From a virus (lineage: Duplodnaviria; Caudoviricetes), in the IMG/VR virus record IMGVR_UViG_3300018068_000001, positions 1 through 35,379 of that record: a stretch of DNA of 35,379 nucleotides. One strand, written 5' to 3'. A program made the position numbers and the translations under genes. The notes under the pieces were generated by a model that saw nothing but the letters and a program-made list of their open reading frames with translations, ran no database searches and was not told the DNA's origin. Shown here one piece after another: positions 1 through 35,379 of the stretch; within the stretch, counting starts at the first letter, position 1; each line of letters opens with the position of its first letter.

Positions 1-60
1 ACCTGATATCCGCCATGGCATGATCTAATCTATCTATTTGCTTTTTTTGTTGAAGCCAAT
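1..60. repeat. Terminal direct repeat (circular assembly overlap), copy 1
   Basis: Identical to 35320-35379; the TnpB reading frame runs across the junction without a break. Confidence 0.97.
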
Positions 61-832
61 GTCCTGATTTTTTTTCAAACTTTTTACTGCCGATTTTACG
101 AGAAAGTCTTGTTTGAAGTATAGTTTTACGATCTTCTAATTTTTTTAATTTATCAGTATCTAATTGATAACCAGTTCCATCGGATAATGCTACAGTCTTG
201 ACTATCCCACGATTTATACCTACTGCCGGTAATGCTCTAATAGTGACATCTATGGTTTTTTCAACTAATATACAGACATACCAATATTCTCTTTCGTGTA
301 CTATAGATAGACTTATTATCTTATCCGCTGGATGCTCTAAATATGGCCTATCTATATCAATTCGGATCAGTGCTTCAATTTTTGGTAATTTCAAGTAATG
401 CCTACCCTGATCGTCCATATCTATACGAAAAATAGATTTAGGGAAATACAGTCTATGCAAATCACCTCTGTGTTTTTTTCTAGGATAACCTGGAGTTTCC
501 CCCTTCTTGACTCTTTTAAAAAAATTCGAAAAAGCTTTATCCAAATCTCTCAGAACTTCCTGCTGGGTACAACAGGGAAGAGCATTTAACCACTCATAAC
601 GTGCCCGTAAGATTGTCAGACGTTTAGCAGTACCTACTGTATTAATGCCATCTGGATGTTTAGTTCCAAAGTAACCCATAGATAATTTATACCGCTTGTA
701 TAAGCCACTCTTCAACCGCAGAGAACGATTCCATAGATACCTACATGCACATGACCACTGATATAGAGTACTGGCACATGTAGGTGATATCCTCAAGGGG
801 TACTTGTAAACTGTGGTGATCTGCTTTTCCAT
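1..832 (-). CDS. tnpB: TnpB-family RNA-guided protein, N-terminal part (405 aa in total across the origin); RuvC-I D->N, predicted nuclease-dead
   Basis: Manual translation from ATG at 832: MEKQITTVYKYPLRIS...CRYLWN...QQEVLRDLDKAFSNFFKRVKKGETPGYPRKK...LKLPKI...WYVCILVE...AVGINRGIVKTVALSDG. It is in frame with the 34934..35335 ORF. Absent from the ORF track because it crosses the window end. Confidence 0.93.
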   Translation of the reverse strand, partial: MEKQITTVYKYPLRISPTCASTLYQWSCACRYLWNRSLRLKSGLYKRYKLSMGYFGTKHPDGINTVGTAKRLTILRARYEWLNALPCCTQQEVLRDLDKAFSNFFKRVKKGETPGYPRKKHRGDLHRLYFPKSIFRIDMDDQGRHYLKLPKIEALIRIDIDRPYLEHPADKIISLSIVHEREYWYVCILVEKTIDVTIRALPAVGINRGIVKTVALSDGTGYQLDTDKLKKLEDRKTILQTRLSRKIGSKKFEKKSGHWLQQKKQIDRLDHAMADIR

Positions 833-2403: not shown

Positions 2404-3120
2404 ATGCCACCAGAATTTAAGCGATCCTATCGACGGGGGTATCTTACTGATTGTAAAATCGTTGACCAGTCTATTCATTTACTTATTGGAATACCATATC
2501 CTGGCGATAAGTGGTACAACTATATTGAACGGCGCCCCAATGCCATTAGCGCAGTTTATCGAGAGATGGGAGTACATTTAACTCACAACATATTGATTGA
2601 TCATAAAAATTTATCCCAGTTCATATCCTCTCATAGATACTGTGTTTTTCGGTTATCCAAACCTGTTGATTCTGCCAATGGTAGTTATTTTTTAAAATTT
2701 ATTAATCACGAAATGATAACTGGTTATCCTATAAGTATTCCCAGGATTACATGGGAACCTGCTAAAACAGACGGAATTACTAAAACAGAGGCAATTAATT
2801 TTCTGAGCACTTCGATTTTATCTCCTATATATAAACATTTAAAAACCTTCGCATATCTGCGGGATATCCCTGATGGGTTTACTATCCCATACATAGCATT
2901 ATCTCAATCTGATATCACATTATATAAGGATATTATAACTGCTGCATTTGGTACCCATAGAATTATGGTAGCAGAGTTATATCTGCGAAATTTACTTCAC
3001 ATATCAGAGGAGGTTATCCTATCTGGTAGAGCACAAATAAATAGGCAGAAGAAAATTGAAAAAATTGATGAAGAAAGTGTTAATCAGTTAACTATATCCG
3101 AAATCGCTGAAAGTTTATAA
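2404..3120 (+). CDS. Hypothetical protein (238 aa)
   Basis: ATG at 2404 follows the GAAGGAGGA RBS; the longer 2314 start lies inside the leader hairpin. Confidence 0.75.
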   Translation: MPPEFKRSYRRGYLTDCKIVDQSIHLLIGIPYPGDKWYNYIERRPNAISAVYREMGVHLTHNILIDHKNLSQFISSHRYCVFRLSKPVDSANGSYFLKFINHEMITGYPISIPRITWEPAKTDGITKTEAINFLSTSILSPIYKHLKTFAYLRDIPDGFTIPYIALSQSDITLYKDIITAAFGTHRIMVAELYLRNLLHISEEVILSGRAQINRQKKIEKIDEESVNQLTISEIAESL

Positions 3121-3130
3121 GGAGAACACC

Positions 3131-3409
3131 ATGAAAATATTGTTAAGTTTACAAACTATCAGGGCTTGGAAACCTCTGTTAGATCAACAGATGGAGGAGA
3201 ATTATAAACAGGGTATCATAGATAATTTTTTGGAAGACGGAAGTTTATCTGAGTTTGATTATAATTATCGAGAAAATCCGGTCATAAGCCGAAAAGATTT
3301 TATACGGTTAATCAATATTAATCCCACGTATCTTGCACTCCATATTAATGAGGATTGGCCTATTAACATGTACGTTGCGGATTTATTACGAGTTATTCCA
3401 CAAATATAA
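3131..3409 (+). CDS. Hypothetical protein
   Basis: AAGGAG RBS, operonic spacing. Confidence 0.75.
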   Translation: MKILLSLQTIRAWKPLLDQQMEENYKQGIIDNFLEDGSLSEFDYNYRENPVISRKDFIRLININPTYLALHINEDWPINMYVADLLRVIPQI

Positions 3410-6981: not shown

Positions 6982-8205
6982 TTATATCAAAGTCACACCT
7001 ATTCTAACTGCAGTCAGGGACTGATTGAGGATATAGGTTGTCCCCGTAGTATGTGGTTTGATTTGAAGCTCTATTGAAGAGCCAGCTTTAAGCTCCATGA
7101 ATCCTGATCCCATTATCTGTTGATAACCATTGTCAACATTATTAACTTGATATGATTGTAATAACAAGTATTCTGATGTGTCCGGATCATATCTACGTAC
7201 TCTTGTTTCTACTATGTCACTTCCGCCTGGTATAGCATTGGATGAAATAGATAGACTATAGTTGACCTGATAGAAACCTGCGTAGGTTGCAAATAACTTA
7301 TGTGATGCCACTGTAAAATTATATGTAAATTGCTCAAATAAATTATCTACTATCTGATACCAAGTTCCGCCAGTTAATCCTAGAGCATCTCCACTATGAT
7401 CAGACGGAGCTATGATATTCCCGCGACATAAATTAATACCCCCGCTGATCATTCCCGTGGCGTTAAGTGAGCCGTTCAATTCGAACCACCCAGCAAAGGT
7501 GTTTGTAAGTCTTGATGGTTCTTGATGTGATGCATCAACAAATATCGGTATCGATCCCGCTATCCCGGTACCACCTATTTGTGCTGGGGGAGTTAAACCT
7601 GTAGCACCCTGGATACCTTGAGCACCAGTTTGACCCTGGAGACCCTGGATGCCAGTTACTCCCTGTAGCCCCTGATTGCCCTGGATACCTGGATCTCCCT
7701 GGATACCCTGAGTACCTATTGCTCCCGTATTACCTTGACTACCTTGGATACCTGTTACTCCTGTATCACCTTGGGTACCCTGAATCCCTTGAGCCCCTGT
7801 ATCACCTTGTACTCCTGTTTGCCCTTGAATCCCCTGACTTCCCTGTAATCCTGTTATCCCATCAGGTCCTATGATAGATGCTCCTGTTTGACCCTGGGAA
7901 CCAGTTTGCCCTTGACCACCTTGTAATCCGGTTGTGCCTATAAGACCAGTGACACCCTGTATACCAGTTACTCCAGTACCTCCTGGTATCGATAGACCAG
8001 TTTCACCAGGCATACCCTGGATACCTGTCATCCCATATATCGCCATCTGATCTTCAGGAAGATACTTTTTGATGGTACCATCCGAAAATTTATGGATCAT
8101 TTTATCCGTATCACTGGCAAAACCTGATTGCTGATTCCTTAAAGCATAATATAATCCGGTTTCCCCCGTTTCAACTCGTATAACATCTGATAATATTATT
8201 GACAT
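6982..8205 (-). CDS. Collagen-like fibre protein with a C1q/TNF-like C-terminal head
   Basis: Gly-X-Y run, then a beta-rich C-terminus with AGFYQVNYSLS...MELKAGSSIELQI. Confidence 0.8.
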   Translation of the reverse strand: MSIILSDVIRVETGETGLYYALRNQQSGFASDTDKMIHKFSDGTIKKYLPEDQMAIYGMTGIQGMPGETGLSIPGGTGVTGIQGVTGLIGTTGLQGGQGQTGSQGQTGASIIGPDGITGLQGSQGIQGQTGVQGDTGAQGIQGTQGDTGVTGIQGSQGNTGAIGTQGIQGDPGIQGNQGLQGVTGIQGLQGQTGAQGIQGATGLTPPAQIGGTGIAGSIPIFVDASHQEPSRLTNTFAGWFELNGSLNATGMISGGINLCRGNIIAPSDHSGDALGLTGGTWYQIVDNLFEQFTYNFTVASHKLFATYAGFYQVNYSLSISSNAIPGGSDIVETRVRRYDPDTSEYLLLQSYQVNNVDNGYQQIMGSGFMELKAGSSIELQIKPHTTGTTYILNQSLTAVRIGVTLI

Positions 8206-11627: not shown

Positions 11628-12599
11628 TTACATCCATGATGCATTAAATTTTCCGTTATTTGTATCATCTACTATGGAATATTTGGTGATAGCATACCCA
11701 GATAATGAATCTGCTGATATATAGATATAATCTCCATCTACATAAGAGCCTACGTCAAAGTTAGTACTTCTTGGAAATATGTAAAGTGGTATAAAGTTGT
11801 ATTTATTGAAAAATATAAGATTGTATCTACTACCCATATCAGGGCTACATGATTTACCAACAAGATAATCTTTATATTTAGACATGAATGAAATGTTAAA
11901 ATCACCTGGTATGGAACATGGGAACTCTGCTATCTTATTAAATGATGATCCATTCCAATGTATAAGATCTATCCTATTCTCTATCCCTATAGGCATATCT
12001 TCATCTACAAGTGGTAGGTAGGGAAATCCTACTTTATTTGAATAACCTGCGGTATGATCATCTATTACATACTGAGCGAGCCATGTGAGTGTACTACCAG
12101 ATACTGACCAAGCATCAATATAGCAACCAAATCCAGAAGTGGTTTCTGATTTTGTCCAGAGTCTATCTCCTGATGGCATCATATAACCCCATAAGGCTCT
12201 TAAACCAAATGAGGTAGAGCTTATTACTGTACCTGTGTAATTATAAAATCTTATGTACCCAGAATCATACCCAAGAACATAAGACCCGTTGAGTGTGCAC
12301 ATATTGGATGAATTACCACGTGTTATAGAGTATATCTGAGAAACAATGGCACCATTAAAATGGGAAAATCTTAATATACAACTACTACCCACTACCCCAT
12401 CAGATTGGACAAAGTAATTATTATCCCAATAATGTGATTCTTTACTTGAGTATGGGCTGTACGCTACCCAATTCATGTTTAAATCATATATAGCTACTTG
12501 AGCATTCCAATTAGCACAATAAAAATAACCTCCAAATTTTGCTATATCATTAGATATATGATTGGTGCTATAGCTATGTGCTACCGAAGTAAGTATCAT
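11628..12599 (-). CDS. Hypothetical beta-rich (propeller-like) protein
   Basis: Aromatic/Ser-rich 323 aa in the tail module. Confidence 0.6.
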   Translation of the reverse strand: MILTSVAHSYSTNHISNDIAKFGGYFYCANWNAQVAIYDLNMNWVAYSPYSSKESHYWDNNYFVQSDGVVGSSCILRFSHFNGAIVSQIYSITRGNSSNMCTLNGSYVLGYDSGYIRFYNYTGTVISSTSFGLRALWGYMMPSGDRLWTKSETTSGFGCYIDAWSVSGSTLTWLAQYVIDDHTAGYSNKVGFPYLPLVDEDMPIGIENRIDLIHWNGSSFNKIAEFPCSIPGDFNISFMSKYKDYLVGKSCSPDMGSRYNLIFFNKYNFIPLYIFPRSTNFDVGSYVDGDYIYISADSLSGYAITKYSIVDDTNNGKFNASWM

Positions 12600-13438
12600 A
12601 TTATACTATACCCTATGTTAAGACTTAATCTATGCATACCAGTTACAGATACCAGATTAAATATTACTATATCTTCTGCTGACATAGATCTATTAGCCCA
12701 ATTGGTTATATCTGTATCACGATTTTTTACAGTGCCATTAAGTACCGCACCAGTCTCATTGTAATGCATAAGAGTTGCCCCAGGATATGTTGAGTAATTA
12801 GTCCTGCTTATATCGAATCGAGCATACCCACCGGTACTCCCAAAAATATTATACTTATAAACCTGAGATGTGACAGGGATAACGATCTGACCTTTGATTC
12901 CTGGAGTGAGAAGAGCTCCTCCTGCATCTACTATTATATTGATCATGCCAGTATAACTAGCGGTACCTCTCATCCCTGTTACTCCTTGTAGACCTGATGA
13001 TCCCTGGATACCTGTAACACCTTGAGAACCTACAGGACCAAGTGTACCTCGTAATCCTGTTAGACCTCTTAACCCAGTTATTCCTTGTAGCCCAGTTACT
13101 CCTTGTAATCCCTGAGCTCCCGTAACACCCATGGCTGCATATGCACCATCTAATCCTGTGGGACCTCTTAACCCAGTTGATCCCGGAGGACCACCAAATG
13201 CACCAGTTGTACCTTGGATACCAGTCTCACCTCCAAACGGAAGATCTACCCATGACATCCCGGTACCACCACATTGCATGATCTGACCAGTTGCTCCTGC
13301 AGTAGCCGGGAATGCATTATCATTGATATATAGATTAGTATCATCTACTGATATACTCACAGATCGATTATGCTTAGGAGTTATCCTGCGAGCATTGTAA
13401 GTTATATCAGCAAAATCTTTAAATTCCCAGACTGGCAT
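12596..13438 (-). CDS. Collagen-like virion protein
   Basis: Central Gly-X-Y repeats. Confidence 0.8.
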   Translation of the reverse strand: MPVWEFKDFADITYNARRITPKHNRSVSISVDDTNLYINDNAFPATAGATGQIMQCGGTGMSWVDLPFGGETGIQGTTGAFGGPPGSTGLRGPTGLDGAYAAMGVTGAQGLQGVTGLQGITGLRGLTGLRGTLGPVGSQGVTGIQGSSGLQGVTGMRGTASYTGMINIIVDAGGALLTPGIKGQIVIPVTSQVYKYNIFGSTGGYARFDISRTNYSTYPGATLMHYNETGAVLNGTVKNRDTDITNWANRSMSAEDIVIFNLVSVTGMHRLSLNIGYSII

Positions 13439-15457: not shown

Positions 15458-18046
15458 TTATCTCGATATACTTATAGTGAATGCTGCATCAGTAAACCCA
15501 TTAATACCTGTAAAATTCATGAATAATGAATTACCAGCGGATACTGTATTATTCCCAGAAGCATTAAAAGTCTGTTCAGTAGATGATGCCCATACTTTAT
15601 CTATAGATGTAATCGCTGTACTATCTATTTTACATGTCACCATTCCAGTACCTCCTGATGATTTTATTACTAAACTGGATATTGTATAGTTTGCCGGGGC
15701 ATATTGATCCAATGTATAAGTTTTATCTCTCGGTATTTCTATATGACCATTGATGGAATCTATAGTCACACCTCTTATACCTGTAGTTCCTTGTGATCCT
15801 TGAAGACCTGTGATCCCTTGAGATCCAGTTTGTCCTTGAGATCCGGTTTGTCCTTGAGACCCTGTAGATCCTATTAATCCAGTGACTCCTTGAGATCCAG
15901 TAGCACCTATTAACCCGGTGACTCCTTGAGATCCAGTAGCACCTATTAATCCTGTCACACCTTGTGCCCCAGTTCCTCCTATAAGACCAGTGATCCCTTG
16001 AAGACCAGTGATCCCTTGAGATCCAGTTTGTCCTTGAGATCCTGTTATCCCTATAAGACCCGTGATACCTTGGAATCCTGTAGGTCCTACCTTAGAGCCT
16101 GATGATATCTGTACCCAATTTCCATCTAATCCAGTGACAAAACCAAAGAATGCTTCATCCTGAAAATTCCACATGATAGCTGGTACTATCGTAGCATCTA
16201 CGAAAGACCCTTGTTCATAAAAGTTACCAAGACCCGTGATACCCTGAGAACCGGTTATTCCTTGTGACCCTGTATCTCCCTGAGATCCAGTAACACCAAT
16301 TAACCCGGTGATACCCTGAGATCCTGTTATCCCTATAAGACCCGTGATACCCTGAGATCCAGTTTGTCCTTGAGAACCTGTTTGTCCTTGAGACCCAGTA
16401 GTACCTATGAGACCAGTTATTCCTTGAGAGCCAGTGTCACCCTGAGATCCTGTTTGTCCTTGTGACCCTGTATCTCCCTGAGATCCAGTCGATCCTTCTA
16501 ATCCAGTAGCACCTTGTAGCCCAGTTTGACCCCGCAGTCCTATAGACCCTGTATCTCCCTGAGACCCTGTATCTCCCTGAGATCCAGTCACCCCATCTAA
16601 TCCGGTAGTACCTTGTAATCCTATAGACCCTGTATCTCCCTGAGATCCAGTTTCTCCTATGAGACCGGTGATACCAATGAGGCCAGTAATACCTTGAGAA
16701 CCTTGAGCACCTATTTGTCCTTGAGATCCAGTTTCCCCTTGATACCCTGTAGGACCCATTAATCCTGTATCCCCTGTACCAGTTTCTCCCTGAACACCAG
16801 TCATACCTCTTAAACCGGTAGCACCCTGTAGACCAGTAAATCCTACCATACCTGTGAGACCAAGTTGACCCGTGGGACCTGCCATACCTGTATCTCCTTG
16901 AGATCCAGTATCACCTTGAGACCCAGTAGATCCTTCTAACCCTGTAGTACCTTGAGCACCTGTTAGGCCTCTTGCCCCAGTTAGACCCTGAGATCCTGTG
17001 GTACCATGTAATCCTGTAACTCCTACGAGTCCTGTAATACCTTCTAACCCGGTGATACCTTGAGCACCAGTTTGTCCTATTAATCCTGTGATACCCTGAA
17101 ATCCTGTGAATCCTCTCATACCAGTCAAACCTAATTGACCAGTAGATCCCTGATTACCAGTTTCTCCCTGGGGACCTGCAAGACCATCTAATCCTGTGAA
17201 TCCTAATGACCCAGTTTCTCCTTGAAGACCCCGAGCCCCATTTTCTCCTATTATACCAGTTACTCCCTGAGATCCCTGTAATCCTGTAGATCCTACACCT
17301 GTGGCACCTTGTGACCCAGTAGACCCTTGTATCCCAGTTTGCCCTACAGAACCTGCAAGACCTGCTAATCCTGTCTGACCTTGAGAACCTGTGAGACCTT
17401 GGGACCCAGTATCTCCCTGGATGCCAGGTAATCCTATAATACCCGTCGCACCTTGTACCCCAGTATCCCCCATACCTGCGTATGATCCGGGGATACCTTG
17501 TACCCCAGTATCTCCTTGTACCCCAGTTTGACCCTGAGCACCTGCACCAGTCACACCTTGTACCCCAGTATCACCTTTTATGAGGGATTCATATGCTGCT
17601 CCAGTGATACCTGTATAATCTATAGGGTTACTGATCTTGATTATTATCTGGGGTGAAAACTGAGAAACAGATGCATCATTTATCTCATTTAGATAAAACT
17701 GAATGCCATAGTAATAACCGTGGACTGCTGTAGAAATAGAAGATGGATCCATCCTCCATGTTATCTGGATTCTTTTATCATCCAAAACTTTTGATGTATA
17801 AGTGAGTATCGAAGTAGTATATAACTCTGGAAGTACCTTACTCCATCTTAACTCATCTTCTGTAGGAGGCAGCACTCTATAAACTTGTGCAGTGAGCGTA
17901 TTGATGGTGATCAAGGTAGAAACTGATACAATGATCTCACCCTCTATGGTAGATCCTATATTAGTTTCTGCCAGAGGTACTTCACCTGAAAATGGCATCT
18001 TCTGCCCGTAGACAGTATAGCTTACTGGTTTGAAAATAACTGCCAT
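15458..18046 (-). CDS. Long collagen-like fibre protein
   Basis: Several hundred residues of G-X-T/G-X-Q triplets ([12 protein letters not shown]) with globular ends and one interruption. Confidence 0.9.
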
Positions 18047-23912: not shown

Positions 23913-24050
23913 TTGTTTATTCCTTTTTAAAGTATTATATTGCTATTGAGTCTGCAAAACTCCATTTAAAAAATTCTAGGTTTGGTTGGGTACCCCCCCA
24001 TTAAAAGATGACGATTTCTTGCAGACTCCGTCGTCTGCCAATCCTTTTTT
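23913..24050 (+). promoter_or_regulatory. Promoter with structured leader/attenuator (element 3)
   Basis: TTGTTT-17-TATATT; GAGT/ACTC hairpin; nested stems ending GCCAATCC-T6; AGGAG RBS. Confidence 0.6.
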
Positions 24051-24064
24051 ATCATAGGAGTCTT

Positions 24065-24610
24065 ATGGTTAAAGGTTCTAAGCATTCTGAAGAATCTAAG
24101 AAAGAAATGAGTGTTAGTCATAAGGGTAAGACACTCTCTAAATTTACTAGAGATAGACTTAGAAAAAGTAACAGAAGACCTATAACTTTTATTGAGGGTA
24201 GCAATGGTTGTTATATCTGTACTTCCCATAATAGGGGTAATCAGGGCTATCCTGTTGTTAAGATTTATGGGGTTAGGACAGAAATAAGTAGGTACCTCTA
24301 CACACTTAAATTTGGTGAGATACCTAAAGGTATGTTTATTTGTCATTCCTGTGATAATAGATTTTGTATCAATATTAAGCATCTTTTTATCGGAACACCT
24401 AAAGAAAACTCTGAAGACATGGTGAAAAAGAAAAGAAATAGTTATGGCGAAAAAAGGTACAACCATATTCTTACTAAGGAACAAATAGCAGATATTAAGA
24501 ACCATAAATACTATAGAGGTCTTTATAAGCATCTTAGTGACAGATATAATGTTAGAACGGGCTACATTTGTGATGTATACCTCGGTAGATCTAGAAAGTA
24601 TGCTGAGTAG
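24065..24610 (+). CDS. HNH homing endonuclease with NUMOD3-like N-terminus, antisense to the structural operon
   Basis: [17 protein letters not shown] (NUMOD3); [28 protein letters not shown] (HNH). Confidence 0.9.
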
Positions 24611-30959: not shown

Positions 30960-33131
30960 TTAGAATCGTTCCCTACTTGCACGTACCTCAGTATAGGTCG
31001 AAGCCACTTGATAACTTAACGAAACAGCATCACAATTATGTACTAGAATATGATTAGCATAATACATATGTGCTTCTTCTACTTTTAGATTATAGACAAC
31101 TATATCATTTTTTAAATTTTGTATTTGTCCTATAAATGACATGACATTTTTTTCCACATGTCTTTCTTGGCACACCGTTGATTGCTGCTGGAGTAAATTT
31201 TTCTCCGCAAACAATGCACATAAATACTTTACCAATAGCCAGTATTTTATTATGGTATTTTTGATAACAATATCTACTACAACATGTAGTATCGGACCTA
31301 AATGATAAAAACTCTTTATTACATTCAGCGCATTTAATTTTTGTTTTTTTAACGTTGCCTTCTGCCCATGACTTTTTTGACTGTTTACTGTGCTGCTCTC
31401 TACCCTCTTTTGATGCATGCCAAGATTTTGTAAGATGTCTGATACTCTCAAGATGTTTTTTTTGTGCATCTGTGCATTTACCGATAGATAGCGAGTAATG
31501 TTGCATACTGTGTAACAGCTGTAGATTGCTGTACTCATTATTAGATCGATCCCCATCAATATGATGGATGATATAACCCTCTGGTATCTCAGTTTTATTA
31601 TGTTTTTGCCAAATGTACCTATGTAGTGCAGTAATATACCTTTTTTTGTTGATAGTTTTTTGATGGTAGAAATATCCTTTTCCGAGTCTAAAAAATTTGA
31701 GTCCATCATAAATAACGCTCTTGCTACTACCCATCTCAGTTGTTCCTTTAATGTAATTAAAAATACTGTGCTTTTATAGTACAATATATTAACTGCATCT
31801 AGGCGTATTGTAAGATTATCCCCTTTAGATATAATTGGGTGATTACCAGTACCAGTTAATCCTATGTTTGTTATTACCTTATCTACTTTATGATTTACTA
31901 TATTTTCTACTTTTTTAATCCCGAAGGGGGTTATAACCCAATCCCCTATCCTTAATGTTTCTATTGGTCTATCCCCATATGGGGTAGATATCATAGTGCC
32001 AGCAATAAAACATTGGTCATCGTGATCATGGCTCATATCCGTGGTAAACTCATTGCACTCATCCAGGAATACCCTATTCCACGGACCCTCTACGAGTGCT
32101 ACCTTGCCTAACTCTGCCCGGGTGATCCAAGGGATAGCTCTGTTTAACTTATCTCCCTCTGGTCTCACTGCCTTGATCACATAATTCCTTAGTTCCGGGT
32201 CCCTCTTGAGCTCATCGATAAATCCCTGCTGCTGCCCAGATGCTTCTATAACTATGATAGTAGATATCCCGTCACTCTTAGCTGTTTCTATGATACGTTT
32301 CCGGAGCTCTGGGAATTCGAGTTTAGCCCTAAAGATATTACCTATTACAAAAGTATCCCCCACCCACTGTGATAAAGCTCCTACTGAATAATCCGCTGAA
32401 AGCTTTATACTGACTGCTAAATCCCAAGCCCTCACTGCCTGAGTAAATCTTACTGGTTTGATTATCCGGAACCAAGCTTCTTGGATAGTACCTGCACCGA
32501 TTACTACGATATCCCCATCAAGTTCCTGCTGGGCAAACTTAGTGAAATACCTCTTACGTAGATCCTCCTCGTATCCTTTGGGGAGAAAAGCATTCTCAGA
32601 AGTTTTTTGGTGTATGATTTCTATTGTTGGGTCATCAGATACCTCTAGTGCATACACCCAGTTCTTTCCCTTAGGAGAACTTATAAGATGCCACTGACCA
32701 TCCTCACATTCACTCATACGCCCGATACATATCAAAAAAATGTCATCAGCTTTAAACTGCCGTGCCTCATCGATAAATACATCTGCTACTTCAAGTCCCC
32801 TGAGTGCATCAGGACTATCCCCCGATCTCAAAAAGATATAGGTACCCATAAGGACCACTATCATATCAGTGAGATTTATTGTGTAATGCTCATACTCTTT
32901 TAAACCATGTTCCTCTAACGTCTTCCTCAAGGTGATAAGTATGGTATCCTTGAGAGTCCGATAAGAAAAACTCACTATAAGTTGGGTCCTCTTTTGAAGA
33001 GCATTTCGTACTGCTTTGATACAGGCTACTTTTGATTTGCCTGATCGGATCCCTGCACGAAAGATGATACCCTTCTTTTTTGAACGCATAAATATGGTCT
33101 GCTTGGGATTAAGGGGGATATTGAGTATCAT
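30960..33131 (-). CDS. terL: Terminase large subunit containing an intein
   Basis: Walker A AGIRSGKS, Walker B VFIDEA, coupling motif SSPKG, nuclease AWDLA and HDDQ|CDA. Confidence 0.95.
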   Translation of the reverse strand: MILNIPLNPKQTIFMRSKKKGIIFRAGIRSGKSKVACIKAVRNALQKRTQLIVSFSYRTLKDTILITLRKTLEEHGLKEYEHYTINLTDMIVVLMGTYIFLRSGDSPDALRGLEVADVFIDEARQFKADDIFLICIGRMSECEDGQWHLISSPKGKNWVYALEVSDDPTIEIIHQKTSENAFLPKGYEEDLRKRYFTKFAQQELDGDIVVIGAGTIQEAWFRIIKPVRFTQAVRAWDLAVSIKLSADYSVGALSQWVGDTFVIGNIFRAKLEFPELRKRIIETAKSDGISTIIVIEASGQQQGFIDELKRDPELRNYVIKAVRPEGDKLNRAIPWITRAELGKVALVEGPWNRVFLDECNEFTTDMSHDHDDQCFIAGTMISTPYGDRPIETLRIGDWVITPFGIKKVENIVNHKVDKVITNIGLTGTGNHPIISKGDNLTIRLDAVNILYYKSTVFLITLKEQLRWVVARALFMMDSNFLDSEKDISTIKKLSTKKGILLHYIGTFGKNIIKLRYQRVISSIILMGIDLIMSTAIYSCYTVCNITRYLSVNAQMHKKNILRVSDILQNLGMHQKRVESSTVNSQKSHGQKATLKKQKLNALNVIKSFYHLGPILHVVVDIVIKNTIIKYWLLVKYLCALFAEKNLLQQQSTVCQERHVEKNVMSFIGQIQNLKNDIVVYNLKVEEAHMYYANHILVHNCDAVSLSYQVASTYTEVRASRERF
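31035..32012 (-). mobile_element. Intein (326 aa) in TerL
   Basis: Starts CFIAGTMISTPYGDRPIETLRIGDWV, has block B TGNHP, ends VYNLKVEEAHMYYANHILVHN followed by Cys+1. Confidence 0.93.
31105..31734 (-). CDS. HNH endonuclease with C-terminal Cys4 zinc-ribbon repeats, nested out of frame within the intein
   Basis: LHRYIW...IIHHIDGDRSNNEYSNLQLL...H; CAEC..CCSRYC..CIVC..TCGKKC; own AAGGA RBS. Confidence 0.88.
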   Translation of the reverse strand: MGSSKSVIYDGLKFFRLGKGYFYHQKTINKKRYITALHRYIWQKHNKTEIPEGYIIHHIDGDRSNNEYSNLQLLHSMQHYSLSIGKCTDAQKKHLESIRHLTKSWHASKEGREQHSKQSKKSWAEGNVKKTKIKCAECNKEFLSFRSDTTCCSRYCYQKYHNKILAIGKVFMCIVCGEKFTPAAINGVPRKTCGKKCHVIYRTNTKFKK

Positions 33132-33811: not shown

Positions 33812-34300
33812 TTAAGTAGACTGGTATTTAGCCCACTGTACTCTGAGCTTTTTACGATAAAAGCTTACTCCTGACTTTGTCATGGAATGATCTTTTGCTA
33901 TGGTACTTTTATCCTTATCCTCTATAAGATCTTTTGCGATGGCTTTGTCCATACCTGTAAGTCCCATTATAAACGTTTGAAGATCTATGGTAGAACCTTC
34001 TCCAGAAATGGTGGGGGGTAATAGATCATCTGATATCTGTACTGTGATGTGTATTTTTTTTGCGTGATATCTATCATATATAAAATTTTTTATACTCTGG
34101 TATAGGTAAGTATCAAAGGAGGACTTTTGAGGATCATATCGTAGTAATAGATTATTATTTTTTATTTTTATATAGAAATCTGAGATGATCCCAGAAATTT
34201 CTTCTGCTGCTATTCTTTTCTTTATGATAAAAATACAGCATCTGGTTAGTTGATCATAATTTTTTACGATAAATTCATCTGGGCACTTTGATGGGATCAT
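33812..34300 (-). CDS. Sigma-70 family (ECF-sized) sigma-factor-like protein, 162 aa
   Basis: Region-2-like RYDPQKSSFDTYLYQSIKNFIYD and region-4-like STIAKDHSMTKSGVSFYRKKL. Start set at ATG 34300 because the upstream in-frame codons are CRISPR repeats. Confidence 0.75.
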   Translation of the reverse strand: MIPSKCPDEFIVKNYDQLTRCCIFIIKKRIAAEEISGIISDFYIKIKNNNLLLRYDPQKSSFDTYLYQSIKNFIYDRYHAKKIHITVQISDDLLPPTISGEGSTIDLQTFIMGLTGMDKAIAKDLIEDKDKSTIAKDHSMTKSGVSFYRKKLRVQWAKYQST

Positions 34301-34318
34301 ATATAACAATATAACATA

Positions 34319-34797
34319 TGATTCATCTCCATGTGTGTGAGGAATATTTTGATAGTTTTCTGGTTCATCCCCGCGTGTGTGGGGAACATTACTGCAATAT
34401 ACCCGGTTCATCCCCGCGTGTGTGGGAGACACATTTAATTTTTAAATGTATATTAAAAGTGTTCGGTTCATCCCCGCGTGTATAGGGAGCACTACATAAG
34501 GAGGTTCATCCCCGCGTGTGTGGAGAACACCAATTAATTCAAACAATAGTATCAGTTTTACAAGGTTCATCCCCGCGTGTGTGGGGAACACAAAAAGATC
34601 AAATCCTGAATCGGTGGGAAAAGCGGTTCATCCTCGCGTGTGTGGGGAACACTTTGTGGATAGTAAACCCATATAATAAATGACCGGTTCATCCCCGCAT
34701 GCGTGGAGAACACACCATGATTTAGTGCATCTATAATGTTTTTGTACTGTATACTGTACCACTATAGACGGTTCATCCCCGCGTGTGTGGGGAACAC
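34319..34797 (-). CRISPR. CRISPR array, 9 repeats of 29 bp (consensus GTGTTCCCCACACACGCGGGGATGAACCG), type I-E-like
   Basis: Repeats start (+ coordinates) at 34319 (degenerate, 8 transitions), 34361, 34404, 34464, 34502, 34563, 34624, 34685 and 34769. Spacers are 13, 14, 31, 9, 32, 32, 32 and 55 nt. Close to the E. coli I-E repeat GTGTTCCCCGCGCCAGCGGGGATAAACCG. Confidence 0.95.
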
Positions 34798-34835
34798 TTT
34801 GTGGATAACTGGTACCCACACAACTGTCAAAGAAC

Positions 34836-34923
34836 GTGTTCTCTACATACGCGAGACATTTCCCACTTCACAGACCCAGTTACCCGGCATCTCCATGGGC
34901 ACACCCCGGCGAACCTGCCGGTG
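34836..34923 (-). ncRNA. omegaRNA-derived, tracrRNA-like scaffold with anti-repeat
   Basis: Immediately 3' of the tnpB stop: hairpin CCGGC-AGGTTC-GCCGG, then GCCCATGGAGA...TCTGTGAAGTGGGAA (IS200/IS605 omegaRNA-like), then TCTCGCGTATGTAGAGAACAC, complementary to the repeat. Confidence 0.75.
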
Positions 34924-34933
34924 AATTTTTCTA

Positions 34934-35379
34934 TTATCTGTGCAGCATATTTAGTGCTGCGTTAGTATCCATGTTTTTTATAAACCCACATTTGGCACAT
35001 TTAAATCTTCTATATTTCTCATAAATATTCTCAGGTCCAGTATGCCCACAAGAGCTACATTCCTGGGTTATATAGGGGACTGATTTTTTAGTGACTGTAT
35101 GTCCTAATCTGTTCGATTTGTATTCCAGCATAATCCCTAATTGTCCCCATCCCTGTCGTAATTGTGCCCTGTTAAAATTAATTTTAATCTGGACATCAGT
35201 ACCTGGCTGTTCAATGGTGCCCTTAGCTGATTTAGTCATCTGCTTTATTTTATAATCTTCTATTGAAATATCCCCATAATGGGAAACTATGTGCCGTGAT
35301 GTCTGATGATTGAAGTTTAACCTGATATCCGCCATGGCATGATCTAATCTATCTATTTGCTTTTTTTGTTGAAGCCAAT
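34934..35379 (-). CDS. tnpB: TnpB-family protein, C-terminal part (RuvC-II, zinc ribbon, RuvC-III)
   Basis: ISIEDY (RuvC-II E298), MTKSAKGT, GWGQLGIMLEYK, ITQECSSCG..FKCAKCG, NMDTNAALN (RuvC-III D395). Confidence 0.95.
   Translation of the reverse strand, partial: WLQQKKQIDRLDHAMADIRLNFNHQTSRHIVSHYGDISIEDYKIKQMTKSAKGTIEQPGTDVQIKINFNRAQLRQGWGQLGIMLEYKSNRLGHTVTKKSVPYITQECSSCGHTGPENIYEKYRRFKCAKCGFIKNMDTNAALNMLHR
35320..35379. repeat. Terminal direct repeat, copy 2
   Basis: Identical to 1-60. Confidence 0.97.

Follow-up and report, generated by a model that had tools for sequence, protein, structure and literature searches.

Does the RNA encoded at the 3' end of a phage tnpB gene serve as a tracrRNA for the CRISPR array that lies just downstream of it? 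The question is raised by one locus in a stretch of 35,379 nt, and we refer to that whole stretch of DNA as the window. An earlier, sequence-only reading had proposed that the omegaRNA at this locus is split, with its scaffold pairing to the repeats of the array. Our preferred explanation, to which we give a probability of roughly two in three, is that minus-strand positions 34926-34836 are a TnpB omegaRNA core in which an anti-repeat has replaced the right-end hairpin, and that this RNA is likely a tracrRNA for the adjacent array and for a TnpB that probably does not cut.

The tnpB gene, the array and their surroundings

The window comprises the whole circular genome of a sediment phage, which has a terminal repeat of 60 nt (35320-35379 duplicates 1-60) and encodes head, portal and terminase proteins. 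The tnpB gene spans the terminal repeat and has 405 codons without an internal stop (Table 1). Its product matches TnpB models in profile comparisons, and the best structural matches to the predicted fold of one of its relatives are the TnpBs of ISFba1 and ISDra2. Past the tnpB stop, the scaffold is followed by the anti-repeat, then by a leader of 38 nt and finally by the nine repeats. Across the complete phage genome there were no matches to a Y1 or serine TnpA transposase and none to Cas1, and no Cascade-like gene was found among the phage ORFs that we scanned.

Table 1. Features of the tnpB locus (positions in the window)
Feature	Position	Strand	Remarks
tnpB 5' part, residues 1-277	1..832	-	start at 832; RuvC-I reads GINRG, Asn207 replaces the catalytic Asp
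tnpB 3' part, to residue 405	34934..35379	-	stop at 34934; Glu298 and Asp395 kept; zinc finger intact
omegaRNA stem 1, CCGGC-AGGUUC-GCCGG	34906..34921	-	overlaps the PAGSPG-coding frame that continues tnpB
Stem-1 loop, AGGUUC	34916-34911	-	predicted to form a pseudoknot with the repeat 3' end
omegaRNA core, stems 2 and 3	34862..34899	-	from folding, covariance model and variant letters
Anti-repeat to repeat nt 1-21	34836..34856	-	occupies the place of the 5' arm of the right-end hairpin
11 nt in common with type I-E leaders	34825..34835	-	TTTGACA motif; the block conserved in variant scaffolds ends here
Remaining leader	34798..34824	-	variable among copies; folds into a hairpin here
CRISPR array, nine 29-nt type I-E-like repeats	34319..34797	-	A at position 10 in 9/9
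First repeat	34797-34769	-	
Last repeat	34347-34319	-	degenerate
Sigma-factor-like gene, 162 aa	33812..34300	-	directly after the array; start set from homologues

The sequence of the repeat is 28/29 identical to that of an annotated type I-E locus, with matching orientation. The array has the 29-nt repeats and, in part, the 32-nt spacers of type I-E: eight copies of the repeat are good and one is degenerate, and the spacers between them are 55, 32, 32, 32, 9, 31, 14 and 13 nt long, so that three of eight have 32 nt, one has 31 and the other four are far from this length. Cas6e-type arrays have a perfect repeat stem, and here an A10-C17 mismatch interrupts it in eight of the nine repeats. All nine phage repeats have A at position 10, where all 137 repeats of four plasmid arrays have G; whichever host the repeat came from may carry A10 itself.

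The leader points the same way. The 11 nt after the anti-repeat are also a stretch of an Acidiphilium type I-E leader, and their TTTGACA motif occurs in three of four plasmid I-E leaders, 38-39 nt ahead of the first repeat (27 nt here). The motif may be a promoter -35 box or an upstream motif contacted by Cas1; such contacts to an upstream leader motif are described for I-E systems (10.1101/2023.05.26.542337). Judged from sequence, the repeat and the leader motif derive from a host type I-E locus.

GC content of the spacers is 27% (versus 39%). They had no targets in the phage's own genome beyond chance, and none for the whole array among GenBank phages and PLSDB; likewise, spacer 3 had no target in phages and spacer 4 none in plasmids. 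The same 10 nt precede repeat 1 (within 34798-34824) and repeat 3 (34653-34663), and spacer 2 may be a decayed copy of the leader. In the leader, this element holds what we take to be a DnaA-box-like 9-mer, in one arm of the hairpin. Separately, five phage contigs (L188-L192) carry 2-4 I-E-type repeats dispersed between small genes, with no TnpB or cas gene seen.

Sigma-factor-like genes lie on either side of the tnpB module (33812-34300 and 1012-1722; the profile matches are weak). A 206-aa reading of the first, which would overlap the array, was ruled out because its homologues begin 44 codons later. A partnership of TnpB with this protein is suggested by one thing, adjacency in a single genome. 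Elsewhere, the 723-aa terminase large subunit (30960-33131) has an insertion that looks like an intein, within which an HNH endonuclease is encoded in a different frame (31105-31734). Another HNH-like ORF (24008-24610) lies on the plus strand, against the direction of the tail genes, and overlaps a 218-aa minus-strand frame. Proteins of the tail region have long, collagen-like Gly-X-Y runs (6982-8205, 12596-13438 and 15458-18046).

The scaffold and its pairing with the repeat

Between the two stretches that pair with the repeat, the sequence-only reading had recognized a core of the IS605 type, and a covariance search bears this out. Positions 34926-34858 on the minus strand match a model of TnpB omegaRNAs at 41.9 bits (E of roughly 1.8e-9; the next score is 8.3), which is the sole significant match genome-wide. 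The model was built from 14 ordinary TnpB downstream regions with the right-end hairpin left out. Training regions had been chosen by a core-resembling pattern (19 and then 36 regions, out of 155 distant TnpB loci whose 3' end could be read), and because this pattern resembles the core of the scaffold, the score of 41.9 bits is inflated. With a model of 12 regions that included the right-end hairpin (stem 4), the scaffold was the first of eight matches, at a weak 11.3 bits (E = 0.42). No Rfam family matches the scaffold, and none matches three ordinary examples either. Folding of the scaffold alone is no better than for shuffled sequences (z = -0.6 to -1.1).

Support for the core that is independent of the covariance model comes from the protein. 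If the tnpB frame is continued beyond two stops, stem 1 translates as NSPAGSPG, which is the C-terminal tail of many relatives; in the phage, a premature stop lies ahead of the PAGSPG tail. The motif that encodes the loop was found in 17 of 29 family proteins and in none of 134 outside proteins with a recognizable tail (186 were examined). By sequence, a structured RNA with stems 1-3 lies at the 3' end of tnpB, as in TnpB elements generally. The right-end hairpin and transposon end that such elements have in cis are absent, and the anti-repeat and leader are found instead. In our promoter scan, no minus-strand promoter reached the threshold, the TTTGACA motif of the leader included, and there was no minus-strand terminator.

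Pairing column by column gives exactly the numbers claimed at the outset for 34856-34836 (minus strand) against nt 1-21 of the first repeat: 16 Watson-Crick pairs, two G-U pairs and three C-A mismatches. With 16/21 identity to the complement of the repeat, the anti-repeat outranks all others of roughly 69,600 positions on the two strands beyond the array, of which the next best has 14. Energy is a weaker filter, as 11 of 23,139 sampled 21-mers bind the GC-rich repeat equally well or better. Furthermore, the duplex formed on the plus strand is the stronger one (-31.0 versus -22.4 kcal/mol); our assignment to the minus strand rests on the direction of the gene and the core and on the I-E orientation rather than on energy.

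The placement of the anti-repeat is that of the hairpin it was said to replace. In ordinary elements, the right-end hairpin starts 1 nt past the core, and about 8 nt separate its end from the guide. The anti-repeat of the window starts 3 nt past the core and covers nt 1-21 of the repeat, leaving 8 nt, and the loop of stem 1 matches positions -6 to -2 of these. The loop letters GGUUC are fully complementary to GAACC, and a sixth pair is possible with two of the nine repeats (those ending in U), which is also as proposed. This is the register seen in TnpB elements: in all 12 ordinary sequences, the loop of stem 1 pairs with -6 to -3, with two-sided changes at two of the four pairs. In ISDra2, the pseudoknot comprises -5 to -3 plus non-canonical contacts at -6 and -2; the paper on it compares stem 4 with the repeat:anti-repeat duplex of Cas12f and proposes a split (PMC10097598). 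By sequence and register, then, the loop would pair just before the guide, with the repeat end as its partner. Two ordinary elements (L063 and L095) have loops GUUC and GUUG and ends GAACGG and CAACGG, so the loop of an ancestor may already have suited the end of the repeat.

The differences between anti-repeat and repeat are all C>T or G>A, as expected from neutral decay of an inverted copy. We read the mismatches instead as likely adaptations to a palindromic repeat, which would unfold both the anti-repeat and the repeat and so let the two pair. Self-folding of the anti-repeat is -3.2, versus -10.8 for the exact complement. Similarly, A10 weakens the hairpin of the repeat (-9.0 versus -14.4 kcal/mol) and costs the duplex nothing (-22.4 versus -22.7 kcal/mol), so that net binding of the tracrRNA is predicted to double (-10.4 versus -5.3).

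We also asked which repeat the anti-repeat would pair with. When scaffold and repeat were cofolded as separate strands, the duplex was part of the dimer of lowest energy for all three repeats tested. In a transcript that ends after repeat 1, the duplex has a probability of about 0.4 and ties with a fold that lacks it; if transcription reads through the entire array, repeat 3 (0.99) is the predicted partner of the anti-repeat, and repeat 1 (0.0) is not. In addition, contigs in two sediment runs lack repeat 1 (30 letters fewer) and contain a repeat-like piece farther along. Nothing singles out the first repeat, as read-through folding avoids it and another strain does without it. The sequence-only reading is therefore supported for the split itself, by the core, the position, the register and natural variants, but not for the suggestion that the first repeat gives a natural single guide in cis. 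It had overlooked the host type I-E origin of the repeat and of the 11 nt past the anti-repeat, as well as the missing catalytic Asp. The same data bear on the idea that the anti-repeat forms a leader-repeat hairpin that regulates only the first repeat, as in types VI and II, with no role as a tracrRNA. Such hairpins are described (PMC13187072) and a duplex in cis is possible, as just noted, but repeat 1 is not preferred, and the pseudoknot match and the omegaRNA core would be left unexplained. A real spacer follows the first repeat, which leaves no extraneous guide that would need blocking. We consider this reading highly improbable.

Natural variants were found in DNA contigs from six sediment runs; the copies are short and related, and are not independent events. 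The variant scaffolds agree from 34923 to about 34825 and then split into at least four different flanks. Ten scaffold positions differ, eight of them in predicted pairs, and seven of these eight changes keep the pair. Stem 3 has a two-sided change from C-G to U-A; two other changes turn G-U into Watson-Crick pairs, one turns a C of the loop into a U wobble, and a G-U/G-C swap lies opposite repeat nt 19-20. The exception, at 34863, breaks a pair of stem 2. No difference is listed in 34836-34853, whereas the flanks beyond 34819-34828 do differ. Because the copies are related and short and all changes are transitions, we regard this support as modest. One variant copy has repeat-like letters within about 110 nt (a weak case, as the joint has 24 letters on its short side), and one strain has a full 32-nt spacer in place of the 9-nt spacer of the window. 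In some scaffold copies (runs X4, X6, X7 and X8; window 34819-34923), the upstream flank retains only the last tnpB-like codons. These copies with another upstream flank may be stand-alone tracrRNA genes.

A rival reading is a decayed relic: a TnpB element that landed beside a captured host array, with an accidental inverted copy of the repeat that is drifting, and an array that serves Cascade or nothing. The C>T and G>A differences, the stronger plus-strand duplex, the irregular spacers, the loss of repeat 1 in another strain and the stop ahead of the PAGSPG tail would all fit. But the inverted copy fits the stem-4 position exactly and ends 8 nt before the end of the repeat, the loop match is in register, the paired changes largely keep pairing, and the 405 codons are intact in a gene with 29 relatives. 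Also, A10 spoils the hairpin that a host Cas6e would need. We consider a relic quite unlikely.

Of the 155 distant TnpB loci from which the training regions had been drawn, four passed a loose I-E pattern. On inspection, three were spurious and one was real. This locus (L040:4007-5600, IMGVR_UViG_3300032038_000051) encodes an unrelated phage TnpB (27% identity) that has lost all three RuvC acids. The omegaRNA core is followed by an anti-repeat and a degenerate I-E-like array. Its anti-repeat matches at 16/22, one above background (15), with a duplex of -26.6; the loop aligned by the model (GGAAC) does not pair with the repeat end, but an overlapping alternative hairpin does. The two relatives of this locus (34-36% identity) are ordinary elements. 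It also has a second, gene-less omegaRNA (3199-3306) just past a tRNA (3069-3140). In another phage (L006:5140-5240), two short repeats 64 nt apart lie immediately past the intact right end of a TnpB element.

How the system might work, and what it might do instead

The TnpB of the window belongs to a family with 29 relatives (43-92% identity), whose boundary is a clear gap in scores, from 527 to 329 bits, in a library of 1.84 billion. The first RuvC Asp is replaced by Asn in 16 of the 29 and kept in 13. In a quick tree, the Asn-bearing relatives and the window protein form one clade (SH-aLRT 99; 16 rows, with one short protein omitted) nested among the 13 that bear Asp. The loop-encoding motif occurs with and without the catalytic Asp, so the change in the RNA likely preceded the loss of the Asp. 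Close family loci were not found in viral contigs by peptide or DNA patterns; the DNA-pattern matches (L163-L183, L187, L193-L202) were due to chance and had neither scaffold nor TnpB. Scanning six of 64 parts of a metagenome collection gave one N-terminal family fragment (L083), and a genome scan gave three distant matches in Lachnospiraceae.

Mutation of any one of the three RuvC acids is reported to abolish activity, which makes it likely that the window TnpB does not cut, although relocated residues are possible (10.1101/2023.11.30.569447). From its sequence, then, the protein probably binds DNA without cutting it; because just one of the three catalytic residues is altered, the absence of cleavage is something that we infer. 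If the RNA is split as we propose but the protein cuts or nicks through a rearranged active site, the system would be a TranC-like anti-phage nuclease. The retained Glu298, Asp395 and zinc finger, the Asp in 13 of 29 relatives, and known cases of altered yet active RuvC sites (PMC10691335, with caution in 10.1101/2023.11.30.569447) would be in keeping with this. On the other hand, the rearrangements described in those papers involve RuvC-II and RuvC-III, any single mutation is reported to be inactivating, and Asn is fixed throughout one clade. We regard an active nuclease as unlikely.

In our preferred reading, with a split omegaRNA and a TnpB that does not cut, the tracrRNA would pair with any repeat of the array transcript. 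Nucleotides 1-21 of the repeat would rebuild stem 4 and the last 8 nt would rebuild the pseudoknot, so that the first spacer base would also be the first base of the guide. Both RNAs would be trimmed by nucleases of the host. The TnpB would then bind matching DNA beside a short motif and block transcription or replication without cutting, with competing mobile elements or host promoters as likely classes of target. New spacers would be supplied by Cas1-Cas2 of the host type I-E system.

A different use of the same parts would be the capture of host type I-E CRISPR RNAs, either precursor or Cas6e-cut, by the scaffold and TnpB, as an RNA anti-CRISPR or to borrow guides. The last 8 nt of the repeat are the 5' handle of a crRNA cut by Cas6e, and the anti-repeat ends precisely at nt 21, sparing this end. 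A host-type repeat would still bind (-5.3), cofolding with a Cas6e-type crRNA built on phage repeats gives -9.3 kcal/mol, and hundreds of contigs in the same sediment runs have near-identical repeats with other spacers. Against this, the phage has an array of its own, and A10 in all nine repeats favors them twofold. Host I-E repeats also fold tightly and are normally bound by Cas6e and Cascade. Overall, we judge capture of host RNAs to be very unlikely. As a variation on it, the omegaRNA may have been retooled as an adaptor for host I-E crRNAs, so that a non-cutting TnpB could load host-made guides; the anti-repeat would grip the 21-nt half and the loop the 8-nt half of a repeat cut by Cas6e. 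We consider this quite unlikely; if true, it would mean that the output of spacer acquisition is stolen from the host and Cascade immunity is drained.

If the preferred reading is right, a host I-E repeat could be captured with few changes. Such a repeat resembles the 3' end of an omegaRNA, with a G-rich arm and an 8-nt tail, so an anti-repeat, a two-base change in the loop and a few hairpin-breaking mismatches would suffice. Conversion to a two-RNA guide would require no growth of the protein. The locus would also offer a small, testable two-RNA system (about 405 aa and a tracrRNA of about 90 nt), whose family would include both cutting and non-cutting members, and a possible route by which a phage gains new guides from host Cas1-Cas2.

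Comparison with known systems

About 50 independent associations of TnpB with CRISPR arrays are known (PMC10691335 and PMC12669027). Relative to the TnpBs of IS200/IS605 and IS607 elements (ISDra2, PDB 8H1J; ISFba1, PDB 8IAZ), the window system shares the fold, the size, stems 1-3, the register of the pseudoknot between loop and 3' end, and the overlap of stem 1 with the end of the reading frame. It differs in that there is no right-end hairpin in cis and no transposase in the genome, the letters of the loop fit a repeat, and the guide would be derived from a spacer rather than from flanking DNA.

Like Cas12n (type V-N, formerly V-U4; PMC12216341), the system has a putative tracrRNA that overlaps the end of the gene and a predicted pseudoknot beside the guide, and Cas12n is the second-best sequence match among solved structures, with a RuvC insertion common to both. 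However, Cas12n is an active nuclease of about 500-540 aa with a 170-nt tracrRNA (about 90-100 nt here). Its expanded N-terminal half barely aligns; the window protein lacks the expanded REC/WED and the long disordered tail, and the C-terminal 240 positions alone align well. Cas12r from Thermus Lalka phages (10.64898/2026.04.20.719267) is also phage-borne and without adaptation genes, with a 29-nt repeat and 32-nt spacers like those of the host I-E system, whose Cas1-Cas2 is the proposed source of spacers. As described there, Cas12r is an active, tracrRNA-free protein of 564 aa, whereas here we find an omegaRNA-derived candidate tracrRNA and a protein without expansion.

Loss of RuvC acids with the fold intact is a property of TldR, Cas12m and V-U24, and TldRs are found in prophages. 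Unlike the window system, a TldR has a single fused guide and is defined by the loss of at least two acids (one of three is lost here). A TldR guide also matches a promoter and represses it, whereas for the AT-rich spacers here the searches above turned up no target. Cas12m, including a phage Cas12m, is described without a tracrRNA. V-U24 is CRISPR-linked, with a non-canonical RuvC-I and an HTH neighbor; by description, the window system fits this loosely, and its TnpB family could be V-U24. For the sigma-like neighbors of the tnpB module, dCas12f-sigmaE systems are a possible analogue.

The closest parallel is TranC (Jin et al., Cell 2025), in which the omegaRNA is split into tracrRNA and crRNA; it is described in PMC13565253, PMC13639567, 10.64898/2026.03.27.714800 and 10.1101/2025.09.28.678669. 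TranC has a TnpB-sized protein (300-600 aa), a split omegaRNA, a downstream array and no cas1 or cas2. The window has a protein of 405 aa with nine repeats downstream, and what its sequence indicates to be a split omegaRNA. CauTranC9 is phage-borne as well, with a clade mean of 414 aa and no domain expansion. The two differ in the repeats, which in TranC have 32-38 nt and are mostly of unknown subtype, while here a 29-nt host I-E repeat comes with a leader fragment. They also differ in the protein: TranC has an intact RuvC triad and RNA-guided cleavage, and the window TnpB has Asn207 in place of the first catalytic Asp and would probably not cut. LaTranC resembles the window TnpB only distantly (17% in the fold search). 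Within the literature we covered, no omegaRNA-derived tracrRNA is described as fitted to a host I-E repeat; the full TranC, Tordoff et al. (2025) and V-U24 data could contain this family. What is new relative to TranC is a phage TnpB, unexpanded and probably non-cutting, that has taken over the repeat and leader of a host I-E locus. For the arrays of type V systems, two origins have been put forward, duplication of an omegaRNA end and landing beside an existing array (PMC10691335), and the present locus illustrates at single-base level how the latter can operate.
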